From contig CM000155.2 of assembly GCA_000004695.1 (NCBI GenBank), positions 1-64,000 of the forward strand: a DNA stretch of 64,000 nucleotides. The letters run 5' to 3'. The translations under genes and the position numbers were made by a program. The notes under the pieces were generated by a model. That model was not told the DNA's origin. It did not search any database and saw only the letters and a program-made list of their open reading frames with translations. Of this stretch, positions 5,530-17,290 are shown one piece after another. The stretch's first letter is position 1, and each line of letters starts with the position of its first letter. This stretch comes from Dictyostelium discoideum. Lineage: Eukaryota.

Positions 5530-6537
5530 ATGTCTACCACTGTTAATAATAATGAAGCCTCTAGTAGCAATACCTCTGCCTATAATAGCGCTGAATCCTT
5601 TGATTTAAGAATGAAGTCAATGGAGGATCAAATCAACAACCTTTCCTTAGCCTTTACAAGATTCATGAAAGAACCTATGTTCTCATCTAATACCAATTCA
5701 CGTAGCTAACCTTCTCATGATGACTCTGACACCGAGAATGAACAAAGTGAAGATGAATCAAGTAACAATGTCGATGTTCCAACCGATTATCAATTATCCG
5801 ATACTTTACTTGGTCAGTACAAACATATGGTAAACAATCAAGGTTTACTCGTCGAAGAAGAATGTATCCTCAAGAAAGATGAGATATCCGAATTGAATAA
5901 AGTATTCAACTTTCCATCTAACTTCCAAGTGAATGTCGCTCCATTCGGTACACCTGAAGGTATTACTGTATCATCCAACGTCAAGAACAATGATACTGAC
6001 TTGTTGATTGTCGAAAAGCGAATCAACGATAGCTTAAAACCTTTGCTTCTCATGTCAAGTATGTTATCATCTGATAGCTACAATGTCGATGTAGAACTTA
6101 TTAGTCATTTAACTCAGAGTGCAATCGTCTTAGCCGTTAATGCTCAAGCATCGCTTAGTCGTGTCCGTCGTAACAACATCGCTAAAGAAATCTATGGTTC
6201 TGAAGTACTCTTACCAATTAAGATCAATGATACACCAAAGATGTTTGATGAAACTGAAACTGAACGTGTAAGAAAGCTAGCCAAGTCAATCAGAAAGAAC
6301 AACGAAGCTAAACAATCATTGTTAAAATTGAATTATCATTCCAAGTCAAATGTCAAGAAATCAGTTAACTCAAGTGGTAATAACACTATAGGAAACAGTA
6401 GTAATAGTAAATCCAGTAGTGGGAGTAATGGACGATCTAACAACTTCAATGGATCACCAAGTAATGTTGCATCAGGTAGCAACAATATCAAGTCTGCAAA
6501 TGGTACCAACAACCGTTTTCAGAAGAACAAGAAGTAA
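5530..6537 (+). pseudogene. DIRS-like ORF1 (GAG-like) interrupted by an in-frame TAA at 5708-5710 (CAA in copy A)
   Basis: 5530 atg..MSTTVNNNEASSS, then 'cgt agc taa cct', versus copy A 'cgt agc caa cct'. The downstream ORF 5827..6537 is in frame. Confidence 0.7.
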
Positions 6538-7554
6538 ACTTACCAGTAGGTGGACGTCTGTTCCACCACAAACAAGTTTGGAAAGAATTGGGTCTTCCAA
6601 ACTTTTGTCAAGAGGTTGTAAATGGATTAATAGTCCATCTGCTTCCAAATTTCAAGCCGATGCTAAACCAATTCCGATTTCAATTCCAGAGGGTCCGAAA
6701 TCAGATTGCATCACAAAGGAAGTACAAGACTTGTTATTAGACGATGCTATCGAACAAGTACTTCCAAACCGTTATTCAAAGCGCGTTTTTTACTCCAACG
6801 TGTTTATGGTTCCAAAACCTGGAACGAATCTACATCGTCCAGTTCTAGATTTAAAAAGGTTAAACTCTTACATCAACAACCAATCATTCAAGATGGAAGG
6901 AATCAAGAATCTACCGTCAATGGTCAAACAAGGTTATTACATGGTAAAACTCGATATCAAGAAAGCCTACCTCCACGTGTTAGTAGATCCACAATACAGA
7001 GACTTATTCCGCTTCGTGTGGAAAGGTTCGCACTACCGTTGGAAAACAATGCCGTTCGGGTTATCGACAGCTCCTCGTATATTTACAATGCTGTTAAGAC
7101 CTGTACTTCGAATGTTGAGAGATATCAACGTATCCGTCATCGCTTACTTGGACGATCTATTAATCGTCGGTTCAACAAAAGAAGAATGTTTATCCAACCT
7201 CAAAAAGGCAATGGACTTACTTGTCAAACTAGGTTTCAAGTTAAACCTAGAAAAGAGTGTTCTCGAACCAACTCAATCAATTACGTTTCTCGGATTACAA
7301 ATCGATTCGGTATCAATGAAGCTTCTTGTTCCCAAAGAAAAGAAGAAAGTGTCATCAAAGAAATAAGAAACTTTTTAAAACTAGATTGTTGCTCCCCAAG
7401 AAAGCTTGCTGGTTTAAAAGGAAAGTTAATCGCACTGAAAGATGCAGTCATCCCATTCAGACTTTACACTCGTCGAACAAACAAGTTTCACTCTCAGTGT
7501 CTGAATCTAGCCAATGGAGATTGGGATCAATCATTTAAAAATTTAAATTATTAA
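6419..7554 (+). CDS. DIRS-like reverse transcriptase, overlapping the ORF1 end. RT domains lie in frame 6419..7366 and a thumb-like continuation in frame 6706..7554.
   Basis: YLDDLLIVG and the same motifs as copy A. The 3' ~190 bp (IRNFLKLDCCSPRKLAGLKGKL...) is absent from copy A. Confidence 0.7.
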
Positions 7555-7873: not shown

Positions 7874-7975
7874 TCCGACTAAGGGCGGGTGGGATGGGAT
7901 TAATATATCACAGCGGCGAAAATCAACACTTTAAAGCACCTTTAAATCCAAGTACTCTTTTTAATATATATTAAT

Positions 7976-8130
7976 AAGTATACTTAATAAGTAATACTTA
8001 ATAAGTACACTTAATAAGTATACTTAATAAATATACTTTATAAGTACTACTTAATAAGTACACTTATTAAGTATACTTATTAAGTGTACTTATAAAGTAT
8101 TACTTTTTAAGTATACTTATTAATATATAT
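7976..8130. repeat. Subterminal palindromic tandem array of about 13-bp units (tacttaataagta / tacttattaagta)
   Basis: About 11 units. The first half is the reverse complement of the second half. Confidence 0.8.
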
Positions 8131-8175
8131 TAATAATTAATTATTTTTATTTTTTTTTTTAAAAAATGTTTTGTG

Positions 8176-8290
8176 TGGGAATTGAACCCGTGACCTCCCT
8201 TCCTGAAGTTCCGGTGAAAAAATGTTTTATATGGGAATCGAACCCTTGACCTCTACCTTATTAATTTATCGCATTTCTATGTAAGCTATA
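8176..8290 (-). other. Two tRNA-derived 3'-half-like fragments with B-box-like motifs (gggttcaattccc, gggttcgattccc). Neither is an intact tRNA.
   Basis: Minus-strand reads '...gaggtcacgggttcaattccc...' and '...ggtagaggtcaagggttcgattccc...'. No complete cloverleaf can be drawn. Confidence 0.35.
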
Positions 8291-8379
8291 GACACTTTGA
8301 TAATTTTCATTGGAAATAGCTATAATATGAATGTTAAAAAACTTCCAAGTAAAAAAAAAAAAGAATGTGAAATAACTCT

Positions 8380-8815
8380 GTGGTTGTTGTATTATTATTG
8401 TTGCTTTATTATTGCTGTTGTTCTACTATTGATGTTGCTGTATTATTGATGTTGTATTATTATTGTTGCTTTATTATTGCTGTAGTTGTACTATTGATGT
8501 TGCTGTTTTATTGATGTTGCAGTCCTACCTGTTGTTGTGTTGTTATTATGTTGTAATTATTGTTGTTGTCGTACCTGTTGTGTTCAGCTACAGTGTTGTT
8601 ATTGTGTTGTTATTGTGTTGTAATTGATTTTGAAGTTGTTTTGTTATTGTGTTGTTATTGTGTTTGTTGTGTTGTTATTGTGTTTGTTGTGTTGTTATTG
8701 TGTTTGTTGTGTTGTTACTGTGTTGTTATTGTGTTTGTTGTTGTTTTATTTGTTTTTTGTGTTGTTATTGTGTTGTTATTGTTTTTTGTGTTGTTATTGT
8801 GTTGATTTCATTTTT
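8380..8815. repeat. Minisatellite of about 11-12-bp units (tgtgttgttat / tgttattgtgttgt)
   Basis: Dozens of tandem units. It generates spurious Cys/Val/Leu-rich ORFs (8560..8805, 8624..9079). Confidence 0.85.
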
Positions 8816-8980
8816 CAATTGATTTTGCAGTTGTTGTTGTACCTGTTATTGTTTTATTGTTTTATGGTTGCACCTGTTGTGGTTTTTATTATTGTTGCTA
8901 AAATTGTTGGTGTGTGTTGTAGTTGTTTGTTCTGTGTATATATTCATATGAATTCTATATTTTTAGCAAATTTACCTATA

Positions 8981-9660
8981 GATGGTCACTTTTTGAGTTA
9001 CAAATATTATGAAGAGTCAATTTTTTATTATGAAATTTGTTCAGTTGTAAAATTATTAATTGAAAAAAAAATTTTTTAGAATATTTAGATTTCTCAAAAG
9101 ACTATGAGCAAGGTATTTATAAAAATTATAAATCTGGAGAACAATTCAAAAAAATAAAAAATTCAATTTCAGATAAATTTATTTTATTAAGAATATTTAG
9201 TGACGGAATGAGTCATCAAGGTAGATCAGATTATACTATAATGGTGGATTTTGAAAATTATAATGGTCCATTTTTTAAAAATAACAAAATTGTTTTATTT
9301 ATTGTTCCAAAAGAATGGTTTCACAATATACATCAAACAATTAAAAAATTATTTTCAGCGCAATTTAATAATAAATTAATAATTAAAGATAATAATGGAA
9401 ATGATTATGAAATTATACCATATGGATTAACAATGGATATACCAGAATTTAGATCATCTTGTAGGATTAACCATTATAATTGCAATGAGTTCTCATGTCA
9501 TACATGTGATAAACTAAGAGGTGTCGATTATTTATTAAAAGAAGGAAATTATAGAAATCAAAAAGACATTATTGACTTTCACAATTCAAAACTAAATAAA
9601 CAAGATTTTTTAAATCCTCAAAATAAAATTTTAAACACAGCGAAGAAAAAACCACTTTAA
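8981..9660 (+). pseudogene. 5'-truncated, frameshifted paralog of the zinc-finger gene at 14428-15898 (C-terminal ~225 codons). The stop codon lies inside the TIR at 9636.
   Basis: The region DGHFLSYKYYEESIFYYEI..KKIF / EYLDFSKDYEQGIYKNYKSGEQFKKIKN..DYTIMVDFENY..GLTMDIPEFRSSCRINHYNCNEFSCHTCDK aligns to the 446-aa protein. There is a one-base frame change in an A10 run at about 9079. The final codons 'aac aca gcg aag aaa aaa cca ctt taa' are TIR sequence. Confidence 0.6.
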
Positions 9661-10391
9661 AGCAAATTTAAATTTAATTTAAAGCGAATTTAAAGTCCTG
9701 AATTAAAGCAATTTTTAAGGTAATTTTAAAGGTAATTTTTAAGGTTACTTTAAAATCACCTTAAAAATTACCTTTAAAATTACCTTTAAAATTACCTTTT
9801 TAATCGCTTTAAAAGCGAGGTCCTGAGTTCGAAGCCGTTATTTAACGGATAAAATTTTTAAAATTTTTTTTTAATTTTTCAAAAATTACCAAAAGGGATT
9901 CGATCCCCCGACCCTCTATCAAAGGATAGTCTCATCAACCATTACACCATTTGATTGCTTTGATGAAAATTTAAATATGATAGAATATTTTATCCCCATT
10001 TTTTTGATCTAAAATTAGATCTTTTTAATTAAAAACCTTAAATTTATACTTAAAGGAAATTTAAATTCACTTTAAATCTACTTTAAATCTACTTTAAATC
10101 CTATTTAAAATTAATTTAAAATAAATTTTAAAGGTATTTTTAAATATCTTAAAAATTATCTTAAAAATTACCTTAAAAATCACCTTTAAAATCACCTTTA
10201 AAATCACCTTTAAAATTGCTTAAAAATTTATTTTCAAGCAAATTTTAAAGGCATTTTTAAATATCTTAAAAATTACCTTAAAAATTACCTTAAAAATGAA
10301 TTTTTTAAAAGCGGCTTTAAATTCAATTTAAATCCAATTTAAATCAACTTTCCTTTAAATTTGCTTTAAAGGTGCATTTTTCTTTGCTGTG
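9636..10391 (+). mobile_element. MITE-like non-autonomous TIR element (756 bp) with 29-bp terminal inverted repeats and subterminal direct-repeat arrays
   Basis: The 5' end is 'cacagcgaagaaaaaaccactttaaagc' and the 3' end is 'gctttaaaggtgcatttttctttgctgtg'. The arrays are (ggtaattttaaa)n near the 5' end and (cacctttaaaat)n and (ctactttaaat)n near the 3' end. A second full copy is at 11946-12859. Confidence 0.7.
9889..9965 (-). other. Degenerate tRNA-Gln(UUG)-like module inside the MITE (anticodon-loop-like CTTTGAT, B-box-like gggggatcgaatccc). There is a second B-box-like 'gagttcgaagcc' at 9826-9837 on the plus strand.
   Basis: Minus strand reads 'gcaatcaaatggtgtaatggttgatgagactatcctttgatagagggtcgggggatcgaatccc'. 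It resembles the tRNA-Gln D-arm and anticodon arm, but the stems do not pair fully. Confidence 0.3.
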
Positions 10392-10474
10392 AAATTAGAA
10401 ACAGAAAAAAAAATGAAAAAAATCGGCATTAGAGATATGACAGATCTTGGGTAGAAAATTTAAAAATAAATTAT

Positions 10475-10879
10475 TTGTACTTACAACCTGATATTTTACA
10501 CAACATATTATTGGGTATTGTACAATGGGTTTTAAATTATATTTTCAAAAAATATAAGGATCAAATTACAATTTTTATAAAAAAATTAAAAGAAGCTAAA
10601 ATCATTCCAGATCATTTACCACCATCAGAATCTTTATTTGGTGTAAAAACAAGAAAAGGTAGAGAGAATAGAAGCATATTATATTATATTTTATTTTTTA
10701 CTAAATCAAATGTATCAAATGATGATTTCTTATTATTAGAAGAAATGTTTCAGATTACTTTTTTATTATATCAAGATTCTTTCGACGAAGATGATTTGGA
10801 TAAAATAAATTATTTAGTTAAAAATAAGTATACTTTATATGTATATTTAAAAAGTATACTTTATAATAATACTTATTAA
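10475..10879 (+). CDS. Orphan 134-aa ORF inside the TIR element interior. Possibly a fragment of an element-encoded protein.
   Basis: ORF MYLQPDILHNILLGIVQWVLNYIFKKYKDQ...; no recognisable domain. It is preceded by a short disrupted ORF (MKKIGIRDMTDLG*). Confidence 0.2.
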   Translation: MYLQPDILHNILLGIVQWVLNYIFKKYKDQITIFIKKLKEAKIIPDHLPPSESLFGVKTRKGRENRSILYYILFFTKSNVSNDDFLLLEEMFQITFLLYQDSFDEDDLDKINYLVKNKYTLYVYLKSILYNNTY

Positions 10880-10950
10880 GTACACTTTATAATAGTACTA
10901 TTTACATTCCTACTTTAAAGATGCTTTTAAGTATTTTTTTCGCCCCTGTG

Positions 10951-11945
10951 ATATATATATATTTAATATAAAATATAATTTAATAATTTAAATTTTTAAT
11001 TTATATTATCATATATATATATATATTATGAAATTTGGACGACAGTATTTAAGAAACCACCAGATTTTTCACCAATGATTCTTTTATCGTAGAAGGTATC
11101 TACAGTATCATTTGATTTCCAACGACCCATCTTCTTGACAACGTGGAACGGAACGTTATTGGACAACAGCAGAGAAGCCATAGCGGAACGGGTAGAGTGA
11201 GATTTGAACTTGCAATATCAATACCTGACTTTGAGAGTGTTGATAGTACAATTGAGTTAATATCATTAACTTGGAGCGGTTCACCCTCATTCTTAATAAA
11301 GACAAAGTCACCCGAATGGGGCTTTCTTCTTCCTTTAGAGGCTCTAAGGTATGTTGCAAGGTGGCGAACAGGGCATACTTGAGAGTTAGTATCATCTAAC
11401 GATGTTAATTCTAAGATTGAAACAACACCACTTCTTTGTTCTTTAGCATTAATAACTGGACCCTTGATTGAGTCAGGAGTAATAATGAGACCTTTGAACG
11501 ACCACTTCACCAAGTCTGATGATCTTGCTAAACCAAACATTTTACAGAGAACAAGTGTCTTGTTTAATAGCGCAGTGTATGTGTACTTGGGGATGACTTT
11601 GATAGTAGATAAGTGCTTGAATACTTGATTTGCATCCCATATCTCTTTATACTTTGCAGATGAAGGGCGCAACTTGTGAATACCAGTCATAATTTTTGTG
11701 ATGAATGGATCATTAACAATATCAGTTTGATTCCTAAGGAGTAACAACTGATTCAACATAGAACGATGACCGTTAATTGTGGAGAAGGCTAACGGAGGTT
11801 TGTGCTTGAACAGATGTGTAAGATAATCCATGACAACAACTAAGGTAATGTTTGCTGGATTCAAAGAGTTCAAAGTACAAAAATTGCGGAATCTTGTATA
11901 ACTGGAGCTATATACTTTGAGAGTTGAAGGTTCCCAAGACTTCAT
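10951..11945 (-). mobile_element. DIRS-1-like 3' fragment: tyrosine-recombinase ORF remnant plus an internal-complementary-region-like segment. It lacks a terminal repeat.
   Basis: 10955-11000 matches the ICR-like segment of copies A and B (395-433). 11001-11028 resembles the terminal-repeat tip. The minus ORF 11100..11945 has LVLCKMFGLARSSDL (recombinase box-I-like R) and then changes frame. Confidence 0.55.
11100..11945 (-). pseudogene. DIRS-like tyrosine recombinase (ORF2/YR) remnant, frameshifted near its 3' end
   Basis: 281-aa ORF with GLARSSDL. A downstream alternative frame (11156..11395) carries the ...YALFATLQHTL... and ...SLYPFRYGFSA... segments. Confidence 0.45.
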
Positions 11946-12859
11946 TACACAGCAAAGAAAAAACCACCTTTAAATTCGCTTTAAATTAAATTTAAATTTG
12001 CTTTAAAGTCCTGAATTAAAGCAATTTTAAAGGTAATTTTAAAGGTAATTTTAAAGGTAATTTTTAAGGTTACTTTAAAATCACCTTAAAAATTACCTTT
12101 AAAATTACCTGTACAATTACCTTTTTAATGGCTTGAAAAGCNNNNNNNNNNNNNNNNNNNNNNNNNNNNNNNNNNNNNNNNNNNNNNNNNNNNNNNNNNN
12201 NNNNNNNNNNNNNNNNNNNNNNNNNNNNNNNNNNNNNNNNNATTACCTTTAAAATTACCTTTTTAATGGCTTTAAAAGCGAGGTCCTGGGTTCGAAGCCG
12301 TTATTTAACGGGTAAATTTTTTAAAATTTTTTTTTTTAATTTTTCAAAAAAATTACCAAAAGGGATTCGATCCCCCGACCCTCTATCAAAGGGTAGTCTC
12401 ATCAACCATTACACCATTTGATTGCTTTGATGAAAAATTTAAAAATGATAGAATATTTTATCCCCATTTTTTTGTTCTAAAATTAGATCTTTTTTATTAA
12501 AAACCTTAAATTTATGTTTAAAGGAAATTTAAATTCACTTTAAATCTACTTTAAATCTACTTTAAATCCTATTTAAAATTAATTTAAAATAAATTTTAAA
12601 GGTATTTTTAAATATCTTAAAAATTATCTTAAAAATTACCTTAAAAATCACCTTTAAAATCACCTTTAAAATCACCTTTAAAATTGCTTAAAAATTTATT
12701 TTAAAGCAAATTTTAAAGGCATTTTTAAATATCTTAAAAATTACCTTAAAAATTACCTTAAAAATGAATTTTTTAAACGCGGCTTTAAATTCAATTTAAA
12801 TCCAATTTAAATCAACTTTTCTTTAAATTTGCTTTAAAGGTGCATTTTTCTTTGCTGTG
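11946..12859 (+). mobile_element. Second MITE-like copy of the CACAGC-TIR element. It contains a 99-nt assembly gap at 12142-12240.
   Basis: It starts 'cacagcaaagaaaaaaccacctttaaattcgc' and ends 'gctttaaaggtgcatttttctttgctgtg'. The interior is collinear with 9636-10391, including the tRNA-like module at about 12350-12430. Confidence 0.7.
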
Positions 12860-12978
12860 TAACAGCTCAGCTGTTTTTGTATTTGTTGTACGAGCGAAGG
12901 ACATTACATGAGATTGGAAAGTTGAATAATCCCCAGTTTCCAACGTTGTTGAATCTGGATTGGTATCGACTCTACTGA

Positions 12979-14060
12979 CACAGCAAAGAAAAATGCACCT
13001 TTAAAGCCAATTTCAAGCAAATACAATTTAAATTTGCTTTAAATTGGCTTTAAATTTGCTTTTTAAAAAGGTAATTTTAAAGATATTTTTAAGGTCATTT
13101 AAAATTACATTAAAAATGACCTTTTAAATTTATTATAAAGCGGTTTTTAAATAATGTTTTAATCACTTTATAATAAATTTAAAAAAGTTATTTTTAATGT
13201 AATTTAAAATTACTTATCAATCCTTTTTTAAGCTTTTATTAATTATATTTTTTAAAATACATTTTAAATGCATTTTAAATACATTTCAAATCAATTTTTA
13301 CACTATTTATTTCAAATTTATTAAAAAAAAAAAAATAAAAATAAGAAAATAAAAAAAAAAAAAAAAATTAAGAAAATTAAAAAAAAAAAAAACTAAAAAG
13401 ATAACCAAATTAATTTTAATTCTTTATTTATTTGTTTCAGTGGCAATTGAATTCTATTATTATTATTTTTATTAATTAATAATAAAAAAGTGTTTCAGTT
13501 GCCTTGGGTTTTATATTATTTTATTTTAAATTTTACTTCTCATTTCAAAAAGCGAAAAATATCAAAAAAAAAAAAAAAAATTTAATTATTTGTTTTGCAT
13601 ATTTATATTATAAGTATAAACATACATATAAAAAAAGATTTTTTATTTTTTATTTTTTATAATTAATAAACAATTAACGAGTGCACATGTATATTATTGC
13701 ATTAGTGTAGTTTTACAATAAATTGGGCAGATTTTATAGTTTTTTTTTTTAATATTTTAAAAAGAAAAAGGTATAGACAGGGTCATAGGTTCCCCGTCAT
13801 TTTTTGAAAATGGGGTATATCCCTCTAAATATAAAATTTTAAGTACTAAATCATATATCTACTTGCTATAATGCTAAAATTTGAATTAAATGAAAAAAAA
13901 AAAAAAAAAAACGTAAAAACTCGAGGAAAAAAAAAAAAAAAATATTATTTTTAATTTCCAGCCAGCAAACAAAATGAATTTAAATAACATATCATGCATT
14001 AATTGCAGAGAAAAATTAAAGAATTTTAAAAATATTATTATTCATTATATTATGCATAAA
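12979..14060 (+). repeat. Left long inverted arm (includes duplicated gene start ATG at 13975 and upstream region)
   Basis: Reverse-complement identity to 15813-16894 as read by eye over several stretches. Confidence 0.65.
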
Positions 14061-14464
14061 TTTTATCCCCATTTTTTTGTTCTAAAATTAGATCTTTTTT
14101 ATTAAAAACCTTTAATTTATGTTTAAAGGAAATTTAAATTCACTTTAAATCTACTTTAAATCTACTTTAAATCCTATTTAAAATTAATTTAAAATAATTT
14201 TTAAAGGTATTTTTAAATATCTTTAAAATAAATTTTTAAGCAATTTTAAAGGTGATTTTAAAGGTGATTTTAAAGGTGATTTTTAAGGTAATTTTTAAGA
14301 TAATTTTTAAGCAAATTTTAAAGGCATTTTTAAATATCTTAAAAATTACCTTAAAAATTACCTTAAAAATGAATTTTTTAAACGCGGCTTTAAATTCAAT
14401 TTAAATCCAATTTAAATCAACTTTTCTTTAAATTTGCTTTAAAGGTGCATTTTTCTTTGCTGTG
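14061..14464 (+). mobile_element. MITE 3' half (collinear with 9975-10391) ending in TIR 14436-14464. It abuts the zinc-finger gene 3' end.
   Basis: Sequence 'ttttatccccatttttttgttctaaaattagatc...gctttaaaggtgcatttttctttgctgtg'. Confidence 0.65.
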
Positions 14465-15898
14465 AAGGGTTCGACCCACCCTCTGTCCACACCTTTGATA
14501 CCAATATCTTTTGCTTTTTTTTCCCATACTTTTTTTAATTCTATATCAGCATTTAGTTCAGCATAATTTGGTTTGGTGGAGTGAAAATTTGTAATATCTT
14601 CTTGTTTTCTTAATGCAAATAAATAAACCATCTCTTGGTTTGTCACATGTGTGACATGCATATTCATTTGAATTATGTCCATTAAGTTTACACGATGCTC
14701 TAAATTCTGGAATATCCATTGTCAGTCCAAACGGTACAACATCTATTTGTTCATTTTCAATAATTAAATTAAAGCCATTACCAATAAAAGATGAAAACAA
14801 TGCCCTAATTGTTTGATGAAAATTAAGTAACCAATCATTTGGTACTACAAATAATAATAATTTATTATTTTTAAATTCATTTCCAATATAATTTTCTATA
14901 TCCAGCATTATAGTATAATCTTTCTTGTTTTGACACTGCATACTATCAGTGAATATTCTAAGTAAAACAATTTTATTTTTATTTTTATTTTTTAAATCTT
15001 TAAATTGTTGACCACTTTTATAATTTGTATAAATTCCAGTTTCAAAATCTGTATCAAAATCTATTCTTTCAAAAAATTGCTTTTTATTTAATAAAGTTTC
15101 TAATACTTTTTTAATTTCAAAATAAAAAATTGAGTGATCATAATTTTTATTTATAAATGTTTCTCCTTTTATTTGAAAATCTTCCATAAATAATTTATCC
15201 ATATATTGAGGTGTGTATCTTATTTGATTTAAATTGGTTTTATTTTTGTCAATAAAACTTTTAAATTTTTCAAGTAGCTTTAAACTTATTGAGTTTTCAA
15301 TTCCCAACATTAAAAATTCAATTTCAGTTTCATTTAATTTTTTTTTTGATTTTTCATTATCTAAATTATTATTTAGATTATTATTTATTGGTTCGTTTTG
15401 AGCATTTTCATTTTCATTATTTTCATTATTTTCATTATTAATGTTTGCTTCATTTTCATCTATTCTAATTTCATTGTTTTCATCTTCACTATTTACCAAC
15501 CCAATTATATCATGATTTTCTTCATTATCAATTGTTTGATTATTTTCATTATTTTCATTATTTTCTTGATAAAAAATTTCATCTTGGTTTTGGTTACATA
15601 AATGTTTACATGGGTCATCTGGATCATTTGTTGGATATTTTATTTTTTCACCAGTAATATCCATTAATTTTTTATAAAAGCTATCTCTTTTTTGATTATT
15701 TGTAATAATTTTATTTTGTTCATTTTTACATTTTTTGGTGTTTAAATGTCCATTTACATCATAAAATTGTTTATAAGAACGGTAACATGCAAGACAAAAT
15801 GGACATATATTTTTATGCATAATATAATGAATAATAATATTTTTAAAATTCTTTAATTTTTCTCTGCAATTAATGCATGATATGTTATTTAAATTCAT
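14428..15898 (-). CDS. Zinc-finger protein of the TIR element, about 490 aa when reconstructed. The N-terminus has C2H2/BED-like fingers (C-x2-C-x12-H-x3-H, then C-x2-C..H-x5-C), then an acidic Asn/Glu-rich linker, then a conserved C-terminal domain ending ..CHTCDK. There is a +1 frameshift near 14640. The last 11 codons and the stop are encoded by TIR and subterminal sequence.
   Basis: ORF 14558..15898 (446 aa) plus alternative frame 14428..14682. The frame switch is supported by alignment to paralog 8981-9660 (VDYLLKEGNYRNQKDIIDFHNSKLNKQDF versus VYLFALRKQEDITNFHSTKPNY). The terminal codons are 'aca gca aag aaa aat gca cct tta aag caa att taa'. Confidence 0.55.
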
Positions 15899-16894
15899 TT
15901 TGTTTGCTGGCTGGAAATTAAAAATAATATTTTTTTTTTTTTTTTTCCTCGAGTTTTTACGTTTTTTTTTTTTTTTTTTTTCATTTTATTCAAATTTTAG
16001 CATTATAGCAAGTAGATATATGATTTAGTACTTAGAATTTTATATTTAGAGGGATATACCCCATTTTCAAAAAATGACGGGGAACCTATGACCCTGTCTA
16101 TACCTTTTTCTTTTTAAAATATTAAAAAAAAAAACTATAAAATCTGCCCATTTTATTGCAAAACTACACTAATGCAATAATATACCTGTGCACTCGTTAA
16201 TTGTTTATTAATTATAAAAAATAAAAAATAAAAAATCTTTTTTTATATGTATGTTTATACTTATAATATAAATATGCAAAACAAATAATTAAATTTTTTT
16301 TTTTTTTTTTGATATTTTTCGCTTTTTGAAATGAGAAGTAAAATTTAAAATAAAATAATATAAAACCCAAGGCAACTGAAACACTTTTTTATTATTAATT
16401 AATAAAAATAATAATAATAGAATTCAATTGCCACTGAAACAAATAAATAAAGAATTAAAATTAATTTGGTTATCTTTTTAGTTTTTTTTTTTTTTAATTT
16501 TCTTAATTTTTTTTTTTTTTTTTATTTTCTTATTTTTATTTTTTTTTTTTTAATAAATTTGAAATAAATAGTGTAAAAATTGATTTGAAATGTATTTAAA
16601 ATGCATTTAAAATGTATTTTAAAAAATATAATTAATAAAAGCTTAAAAAAGGATTGATAAGTAATTTTAAATTACATTAAAAATAACTTTTTTAAATTTA
16701 TTATAAAGTGATTAAAACATTATTTAAAAACCGCTTTATAATAAATTTAAAAGGTCATTTTTAATGTAATTTAAATGACCTTAAAAATATCTTTAAAATT
16801 AACTTTTTAAAAAGCAAATTTAAAGCCAATTTAAAGCAAATTTAAATTGTATTTGCTTGAAATTGGCTTTAAAGGTGCATTTTTCTTTGCTGTG
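15813..16894 (-). repeat. Right long inverted arm (contains the gene 5' end, promoter region and terminal TIR)
   Basis: Reverse complement of 12979-14060. Confidence 0.65.
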
Positions 16895-17141
16895 TACCTT
16901 AAAAATCACCTTTAAAATCACCTTTAAAATCACCTTTAAAATCACCTTTAAAATCACCTTTAAAATTGCTTAAAAATTTATTTTAAAGCAAATTTTAAAG
17001 GCATTTTTAAATATCTTAAAAATTACCTTAAAAATTACCTTAAAAATGAATTTTTTAAACGCGGCTTTAAATTCAATTTAAATCCAATTTAAATCAACTT
17101 TGCTTTAAATTTGCTTTAAAGGTGCATTTTTCTTTGCTGTG
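16895..17141 (+). mobile_element. MITE 3' fragment (collinear with about 10170-10391) ending in TIR
   Basis: The (cacctttaaaat)5 array, then '...gctttaaaggtgcatttttctttgctgtg' ending at 17141. Confidence 0.6.
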
Positions 17142-17290
17142 GTAATTTTAAAGGTAATTTTTAAGGTGATTTTAAAGTAACCTTAAAAATTACCTTTAAA
17201 ATTACCTTAAAAATTGCTTTAATTCAGGACTTTAAATTCGCTTTAAATTAAATTTAAATTTGCTTTAAAGGTGGATTTTTCTTCGCTGTG
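17142..17290 (-). mobile_element. Inverted MITE 5' fragment ending in TIR (17262-17290). It abuts a gene-3'-end-like ORF.
   Basis: Reverse complement of 9636-9790. The adjacent minus ORF 17265..17468 ends ...NQPTQRRKIHL*, with its last 8 codons in the TIR. Confidence 0.55.

Follow-up and report, generated by a model that had tools for sequence, protein, structure and literature searches.

Three classes of DNA transposons have been described in Dictyostelium, i.e., Tdd, DDT, and thug, and according to reviews their transposases are not significantly similar to known ones (PMC5633606). About 20% of the Dictyostelium centromeres consists of DDT elements, which occur there alongside DIRS and Skipper (PMC2665215). 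The present analysis deals with an element at positions 7909-10950 of a 64-kb stretch of D. discoideum DNA (positions 1 to 64,000 of contig CM000155.2, assembly GCA_000004695.1), which is called the window throughout. It is very likely that this element is one defective, non-autonomous copy of a D. discoideum cut-and-paste DNA transposon of about 5.4 kb, termed family 2 here. Glockner et al. (2001, Genome Res 11:585) are said to have catalogued the D. discoideum repeats, including DDT-A, DDT-B, and DDT-S. Family 2 very probably corresponds to one of these DDT elements, a name that was taken from the context.

With DDT, the element shares the host, D. discoideum, and the setting, as DDT elements are DNA transposons found in DIRS/Skipper centromeric clusters (PMC2665215), like the window and the related loci. 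In addition, the two autonomous subfamilies and one short non-coding member found here, i.e., family 1, family 2, and a miniature inverted-repeat transposable element (MITE) of 756 bp, fit the A/B/S naming. The difference is that the literature reports no similarity of DDT to known families, whereas here the transposases are linked to the CACTA-Mirage-Chapaev (CMC) group. Its hallmarks are CAC...GTG termini and the motifs C(2)C, LH, and H(4)H (PMC4079192).

For comparison, loci from other assemblies were used that represent D. discoideum DNA around transposase homologues (L001-L006). The element in the window has the following parts:

7907-7908 (left) and 10951-10952 (right), no strand: putative 2-bp target-site duplication (TSD), AT (flank comparison)
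7909-7950, plus strand: left terminal inverted repeat (TIR) of the family-2 element, CACAGCGGCGAAAATCAACACTTTAAAGCACCTTTAAATCC (terminus search, end alignment, recurrence at other loci)
7958-8136, no strand: left subterminal array, about 13 units of the 13-bp palindromic TACTTAWTAAGTA (repeat finding, motif search, folding)
8150-8310, minus strand: two tandem B-box-like units of about 56 bp, then a tRNA-3'-half-like stretch (part of the canonical left arm)
8368-8930, no strand: TGTTGT-rich minisatellite, periods 17/34/65 and 11/20 (part of the canonical left arm)
8946-8948, no strand: deletion junction 1 (comparison with L002; microhomology at the joint)
8946-9635, plus strand: transposase fragment, about codons 206-449 of about 823 (99.1-99.3% identity to L002 6620-7310 and L003 8614-9304)
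9636-10391, plus strand: nested MITE of 756 bp with 11/12-bp subterminal repeats and a degenerate tRNA-like module (own termini, TSD, empty site)
10392-10823, plus strand: transposase continuation, about codons 449-593 (98.9-99.1% identity to L002 7309-7743 and L003 9303-9737)
10823-10825, no strand: deletion junction 2 (comparison with L005)
10826-10908, no strand: remnant of the right subterminal array, about 6 units of 13 bp (repeat finding and motif search)
10909-10950, minus strand: right TIR, read inward CACAGGGGCGAAAAAAATACTTAAAAGCATCTTTAAAGTAGG (terminus search, end alignment, similarity to the right ends of L003 and L005)

Termini and Target-Site Duplications

The inverted termini at 7909 and 10950 are CACAGCGGCGAAAA and CACAGGGGCGAAAA. 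The former begins at 7909 on the plus strand, the near-complement TTTTCGCCCCTGTG ends at 10950, and the two ends, when both are read inward, agree at 33 of 42 nt. The score of the end-to-end alignment was 21, whereas 5000 random 42-mers had scores of -9.2 +/- 4.9 and reached at most 10. A chance inverted repeat was ruled out, because the same ends recur at other loci. The left end and the left end of the MITE also match at 33 of 42 nt, i.e., the left end is as near to the MITE as to its own right end, and both have CACAGCG..GAAAA...ACTTTAAAGCA..TTTAAAT in common. An earlier sequence-only reading of this DNA had described the two termini as inverted complements that are related to the TIR of the MITE, and both statements were confirmed. 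Every end of family 2, family 1, and the MITE opens with CACAG, the hallmark CAC...GTG termini are present, and the family end pattern was CACAG[CG]GGCGAAAA.

The right end of the window copy (10824-10950) has 95% identity to L003 12080-12207 over 128 nt; with the right end at L005 11904, the identity is 87%. The left type of end differs from the right type, and each type is conserved across copies. Further left ends of family 2 were found at six positions in the related loci (L001 4464, L002 2699, L004 5326, L005 870, L006 9926, and L006 12516), and further right ends at L005 11904, L006 12381, and L006 15057, plus the unpaired right end at L003 12207. The sequence-only reading would have failed if these termini were never found as pairs around similar content; such pairs do exist, namely L005 870..11904, L006 9926..12381, and L006 12516..15057.

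Insertion duplicates 2 bp. Of the 12 element pairs from the window and the loci, 10 had flanks that agree over 2 bp, the chance of such a match being about 0.11 per pair for DNA of this composition, and for one element a precise empty site is available in addition (see below). The family-2 duplications were AT (window), CA (L005), and AG and TA (L006), and those of the MITE were AA and TA (window), TT and TT (L002), GG (L003), and TT (L006). The two pairs lacking a match were one MITE in L003 and the rearranged family-1 element.

The Full-Length Element and its Copies

All homologues of the open reading frame (ORF) 14558-15898 of the window, which is 100% identical to a D. discoideum protein at NCBI, were from D. 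discoideum or D. cf. discoideum. They form two transposase subfamilies with about 43% identity. The gene fragments of the window copy have 99% matches to subfamily 2 (P0013), the full-length relatives of which (P0013-P0016, P0019, and P0022) have predicted lengths of 715-768 amino acids (aa).

The left end, the 13-bp array, the B-box-like units, and the minisatellite precede the same gene in L001, L002, and L004. On the other side, in L003 and L005, the gene is followed by a second ORF and then by a long array with a right end. A complete element is present at L005 870..11904, interrupted by a nested Skipper retroelement, which displaces the B-box-like stretch of the left arm. When the left part of L001 (4464-6000) was joined to the right part of L005 (8001-11904), a canonical length of about 5.4 kb resulted. 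The transposase gene is intronless and encodes about 823 aa; in L003 as well as in L005, a single frameshift interrupts the ORF. A second, conserved, and spliced gene for about 256 aa (ORF2) is located downstream of the transposase gene in both families (L003 10596-11561, L005 10598-11523), is fused as a C-terminal extension in P0028, and has been deleted from the window copy. It had no Pfam match, and it is a candidate for an accessory or DNA-binding protein. The order of an intact element is left TIR, 13-bp palindrome array, tandem B-box-like units, TGTTGT minisatellite, the gene for the zinc-finger DDE transposase, ORF2, right array, and right TIR.

L006 contains two neighbouring, non-coding elements with family-2 ends and arrays (9926-12381 and 12516-15057, 2.46 and 2.54 kb), which are 92% identical and have 2-bp TSDs, AG and TA. 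This pair is a non-autonomous derivative family distinct from the window copy.

Two Probable Internal Deletions in the Window Copy

The first transposase fragment contains the catalytic D1 (SDG, 9202-9204), D2 (TMDIPEF, 9436-9438), and C(2)C (9496-9507), and it has a frameshift in a poly-A run near 9060. The continuation contains the LH motif PDILHN, with L and H at 10496-10501, and has a 1-bp deletion near 10436, so that the copy carries at least two frameshifts. Up to the right array, the region 10392-10825 and L002 7309-7743, a paralog from another assembly, have 99% identity. The proposed "orphan ORF" (10475-10879) is, therefore, the next stretch of the transposase, read on into the right array. 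Likewise, a truncated zinc-finger paralog represented by the 3' part of its gene had been proposed. The gene is indeed a paralog, but the retained piece is the middle of the gene, without the N-terminal zinc fingers.

At junction 1 about 920 bp are missing (L002 about 5703 to about 6620), which comprise the promoter and the first about 205 codons with both C2H2-like zinc fingers. The loss at junction 2 is about 2.05 kb (L005 9729 to 11778); it affects the final third of the gene, in which H(3)H and the catalytic E are located, as well as ORF2 and the larger part of the right array. The window copy has thus retained D, D, C(2)C, and LH, and lacks H(3)H and E. The sequence of parts in the interior had been described correctly before, and only the labels "tRNA-like", "ZnF", and "orphan ORF" had to be corrected. 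Because of the two deletions, the frameshifts, and the MITE insertion, the window copy cannot make a transposase. Judged by its sequence, it appears to be the wreck of a family-2 element with two internal deletions, two frameshifts, and a small transposon inserted into the gene.

The two deletion junctions could also be read as recombination joints, so that 7909-10950 would consist of two fragments of different family-2 copies, joined by nesting or recombination. In favour of this, rearrangements in the cluster are extensive, with a head-to-head duplication in the adjacent family-1 element, and the AT/AT flanks are indecisive. However, every part follows the order and orientation of the canonical element, the same two subfamily copies (L002 and L003) match both pieces of the gene with 99% identity, and junction 1 is a simple microhomology joint. 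An origin from two copies is thus unlikely.

Relationship of the Transposase to the CMC Group

An exhaustive profile search retrieved 41 proteins, and the weakest 19 of these had E values of 1e-6 to 1e-3, all over the region from LH to the catalytic E. Ten of the weak relatives were scanned against Pfam. Two of them (P0050 and P0060) passed the cut-off of PF02992, Transposase_21 (tnp2, En/Spm family), several of these distant relatives matched the Caenorhabditis family DUF1258 below its threshold, and no KDZ Pfam family was found in the scanned relatives. The alignment of the Dictyostelium proteins was then compared with the alignment of the ten relatives using hhalign, which resulted in a probability of 99.5% and an E value of 1.8e-22 over 458 columns. 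The motif pairs were RIF-T-DG with TDG, TMDIPEF with VADAPAR, CHTC with CNTC, and PDILHN with AEYLHS, and FHLLLHY..WGAPKFTSAERFEAQ was paired with IHQLTHM..WGSLSVNSAFSFEGF. The register was, thus, DG, D...C(2)C, LH, and H(3)H...WG...FE. The full-length paralogs carry SDG, MDIPEF, CHTC, DILHN, FHLLLHY, and SAERFE. Together with the CAC...GTG ends, the short TSD of 2 bp, the subterminal arrays, and a DDE core with C(2)C, LH, and H(3-4)H, these motifs place the transposase, as far as sequence profiles can tell, in the CMC group. This assignment appears to be absent from the accessible literature.

With En/Spm (CACTA) elements, family 2 shares the CAC termini, a short TSD, short subterminal repeats in both orientations, two genes for a transposase and a second protein, and the DDE core with C(2)C, LH, and H(3)H. 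Internally deleted, non-autonomous derivatives are frequent in both cases, as exemplified by the dSpm/I elements. The TSD of En/Spm is 3 bp, compared with 2 bp in family 2, and the terminus is CACTA instead of CACAG. Several features are present only in family 2, i.e., N-terminal C2H2-like fingers, a perfectly palindromic unit of 13 bp, a hairpin array of about 180 bp, the B-box-like units, and the minisatellite in the left arm; in addition, the threshold of Pfam Transposase_21 was not reached. Of the features of CACTA elements in the strict sense, the subterminal arrays and the second gene are, thus, present, with binding of the arrays by the second protein being predicted, and the 3-bp TSD and the CACTA terminus are absent. 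The CAC...GTG termini and the CMC catalytic motifs are also shared with Mirage and Chapaev, but the sequence similarity to either is remote. Mirage elements duplicate 2 bp. For Chapaev, 3-4-bp duplications have been described (PMC4079192).

Alternatively, the element could be a cut-and-paste transposon outside the CMC group, i.e., a member of a KDZ/Plavaka-like lineage or of an unclassified, lineage-specific superfamily. This would agree with the lack of a direct Pfam match, with the passing of the Transposase_21 threshold by only 2 of the 10 scanned distant relatives, and with the reviews that report no similarity to known transposases (PMC5633606). The hhalign result, in which every catalytic and zinc-binding motif is in register, the CAC...GTG termini, the 2-bp TSD, the subterminal repeats, and the lack of KDZ matches in the relatives make a position outside the CMC group very improbable.

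Three further groups were rejected. Elements of the hAT group make an 8-bp duplication, unlike the 2 bp found here. Tdd/Ginger was ruled out because Tdd encodes an integrase-like transposase (PMC2836005). The element thug-S has been described to have an intron that carries a microRNA (miRNA), and it was ruled out for being intron-bearing and miRNA-bearing (PMC4894637).

The Nested MITE and the Family-1 Element

The MITE is inserted in the reading frame, between the codons for ...NPQNKIL and KLETE.... Its TSD is AA (9634-9635 and 10392-10393), and the insertion reads ...ttttAAA[MITE]AAAttagaa. In L002 and L003 this site is empty; the paralogs there, which are 99% identical, run through ttttAAAAttag, and their sequence at this point is cctcaaaataaaattttAAAAttagaa. 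The TIRs match at 36 of 42 nt, the element has no ORF, and copies with about 96% identity occur in the window, L002, and L003. It is, thus, classified as a MITE because it is short and non-coding and has TIRs, a TSD with an empty site, and near-identical copies. MITEs are dense, with at least three per 6 kb in both L002 and L003.

Its tRNA-like module is present at 9886-9956 and 12353-12423 (minus strand) and has A-box-like and B-box-like parts. It was called by ARAGORN only at a relaxed threshold and only in the MITE; the module of the second MITE copy is tRNA-Ser(tga)-like, and the relaxed calls came amid obvious false positives. Rfam had no tRNA match in the MITE module. The second MITE also contains a run of 100 N (12142-12241), which is a spurious scaffold gap, as its flanks overlap by about 37 bp in the gap-free assembly (locus L007, see below).

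The family-1 element at 12979-16894, which had been regarded as a composite element, is a head-to-head structure. Its arms (12979-14060 and 15812-16894) have a length of 1.08 kb, are 93-94% complementary, and both represent the 5' end of the element, i.e., the TIR, the leader, and the first 29 codons. The truncation of the gene is at 14465, behind ...VDRGWVEP; in family 2, the MITE is inserted about 25 codons before this point. The joint between the truncated gene and the inverted duplicate of its own 5' end is filled by the right half of a MITE (14061-14464). Therefore, the internal family-1 terminus at 14464 is half a MITE at a rearrangement junction, and P0007 and similar proteins read through this point. 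The flanks of the family-1 element, GA and TA, have no duplication. Two MITE fragments directly adjoin it at 16895-17290, both on the minus strand; the right part ends at 17141, and the left part extends from 17290 leftward to 17142.

These results bear on the organization that the sequence-only reading had proposed as canonical. The region 7909-10950 had rightly been claimed as a second TIR element; it is genuine, and it is distinct from both of its relatives, the MITE and the element at 12979-16894. It had also been suggested that both window elements have the same order of parts, with an internal TIR copy at the gene stop that makes the 3' tail independently mobilisable. Yet the internal TIRs belong to a complete MITE within the reading frame, with its own TSD and an empty site in the paralogs, and the "tail" is the remainder of the truncated gene, fused to the right end by the 2-kb deletion. 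The parallel with family 1 also does not hold, because the insertion points differ and family 1 has only half a MITE at a rearrangement junction. Lastly, a terminus inside the gene was found in none of the longer or full-length copies L001, L003, L004, L005, and L006. Because MITEs are dense in the clusters, two insertions near each other in paralogous genes are not surprising. The composite model, according to which families 1 and 2 share a design that allows sub-units to move independently, could be defended by the internal termini within about 25 codons of the same gene point in both window elements, and by the similarity of the MITE and family-2 termini (33 of 42 nt), which makes hybrid end pairs, e.g., 9636 with 10950, conceivable; in view of the evidence above, it is largely refuted and scarcely credible. 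The suggested composite architecture is an artefact of nested insertion.

Subterminal Arrays and Left Arm

As proposed before, arrays of 13-bp units are located inside both ends. Tandem Repeats Finder detected a period of 13 with 12.9 copies at 7967-8136 and a period of 13/26 at 10826-10899, compared with earlier extents of 7976-8130 and 10860-10915. Each unit, TACTTA-W-TAAGTA, is palindromic by itself, and the whole left array is in addition one palindrome with arms of 89 nt, which are 92% complementary around the centre at 8047. Folded as DNA, it had a free energy of -60.9 kcal/mol (z = -15.5). A search of the 64-kb window for 13-bp units with at most one mismatch showed that they are confined to the element. 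Full right arrays have lengths of 300-500 bp (L003 11660-12150 and L005 11590-11870). The left array is a putative protein-binding array.

The palindromic arrays of family 2 and the MITE fold into long hairpins, similar to Made1/mir-548, and weak matches to miRNA precursors were obtained. The hairpins at 7997-8097, 9702-9789, 12027-12114, and 17136-17219 matched the models of mir-5014, mir-548, and mir-3938 with E values of 1e-6 to 1e-3. In contrast to Made1/mir-548, all scores were far below the gathering thresholds, and membership in a miRNA family was rejected; these are hairpin look-alikes.

Downstream of the left array, exact B-box/T-arm motifs of tRNAs are located at 8178-8188 (GGTTCAATTCC) and 8234-8244 (GGTTCGATTCC), which are the sole exact matches in 64 kb. 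The number of B-box-like units varies between 2 and 5 among copies, and the motif is invariant in the alignment. Such units are also present at L001 4740-5130, L002 2905-3175, L004 5440-5700, and L006 10180-10420 and 12720-12960. The earlier description of this region as "tRNA-like fragments" was thus justified with regard to the B-box/T-arm motif in the units of about 56 bp, but ARAGORN and Rfam called no tRNA in 8150-8310, and Rfam had only 13-nt T-loop matches. The B-box units may be captured tRNA debris or functional TFIIIC sites. The minisatellite has homologues at L001 5111-5779, L002 3653-4040, and L005 7218-7707, and the Cys/Val-rich ORFs at 8560-8805 and 8624-9079 are translation artefacts of this TGTTGT minisatellite.

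The Surrounding Transposon Cluster

The window has a G+C content of about 22%, with poly-N tracts in coding DNA, and the transposon cluster spans 5.8-17.3 kb. The element is flanked by fragments of DIRS:

5827-7554, plus strand: DIRS-1 gag and reverse-transcriptase fragments, upstream of the element
11100-11945, minus strand: DIRS recombinase fragment, downstream of the element

With at most two mismatches, the terminus pattern CACAGCGNNGAAAA had 12 matches in the window, compared with 2.0 expected, and 11 of them are within 7909-17290. These eleven termini of the CACAGC...GAAAA type lie between and beyond the DIRS fragments. Genes of DIRS or of Skipper-type long terminal repeat retrotransposons are present in most related loci (L001, L002, L004, L005, and L007), and most related loci are close to contig ends. 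L007 is the orthologous locus in a gap-free assembly; it is 99.7% identical to the window, and the structure is unchanged. The DIRS neighbours in the window and Skipper in related loci agree with the published centromere context of DDT (PMC2665215), which supports the reading as a DDT-type element. The element is an ordinary resident of a centromeric transposon graveyard and no new kind of composite element.

Discussion

Several observations weigh against the interpretation as a DDT-type transposon of the CMC group. The name DDT is an inference from the genomic context and the make-up of the families. The AT/AT duplication of the window copy is uninformative, because its flanks are (AT)n. None of the six related loci has an intact reading frame. 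No insertion polymorphism was found, with L007, the structure of which is the same as in the window, as the sole orthologous locus compared. Searches against Pfam retrieved no family at E <= 1 for the window ORFs and none beyond noise at E <= 10 for the full-length proteins, a reconstructed one included, and the Dictyostelium proteins had no direct match to Transposase_21 (PF02992); because of this, the CMC assignment rests on the indirect profile link and the motifs. Finally, an AlphaFold2 model, based on an alignment of 15 sequences, had a mean predicted local distance difference test score (pLDDT) of 37.8, which is too poor for a test of the RNase H-like catalytic fold.

The anatomy and homology of the element, the duplications of 2 bp, the empty site, and the link to the superfamily were observed directly. 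The following mechanism is inferred by analogy with En/Spm. The DDE enzyme would transpose by cut-and-paste and would recognize the terminal about 40 bp, which may be a cleavage/recognition site common to family 1, family 2, and the MITE. The subterminal repeats are specific for the families, i.e., 13-bp palindromes in family 2, and 11/12-bp units, TTTAAAT.... and CTTAAAAATTAC, in family 1 and the MITE. They may be the binding sites for the zinc-finger N-terminus or for the ORF2 protein. A similar division of labour exists in En/Spm, where TnpD cuts at the CACTA ends and TnpA binds subterminal 12-mers. In the history of the window copy, one deletion would have removed the promoter and the 5' quarter of the gene, and another one the 3' third together with ORF2, and the related MITE would have been inserted. 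Because both termini and part of both arrays have survived, the window copy could in principle be excised and reinserted by a transposase from elsewhere. It would, thus, be at best a passive, trans-mobilisable element without a functional protein.

A more far-reaching interpretation is that the DDT-type elements are a deeply diverged, lineage-restricted, and unrecognised branch of CMC, in which the B-box units and the tRNA-like module of the MITE could recruit the Pol III factor TFIIIC and the palindrome of about 180 bp could feed small-RNA or heterochromatin pathways. This is unlikely. If it were true, DNA transposons would help to organise centromeres that are built from transposons, or they would mimic the tRNA-gene "safe havens" of the TRE retrotransposons. 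TRE elements are nearly absent from the centromeres (PMC2665215), which argues against the B-box units as a retrotransposon target.

The combination of a shared terminal region of about 40 bp with differing subterminal units suggests that cleavage sites and family-specific binding arrays are recognized separately. The probable placement in the CMC group would give these elements, which account for about a fifth of the Dictyostelium centromeres, a mechanistic framework.

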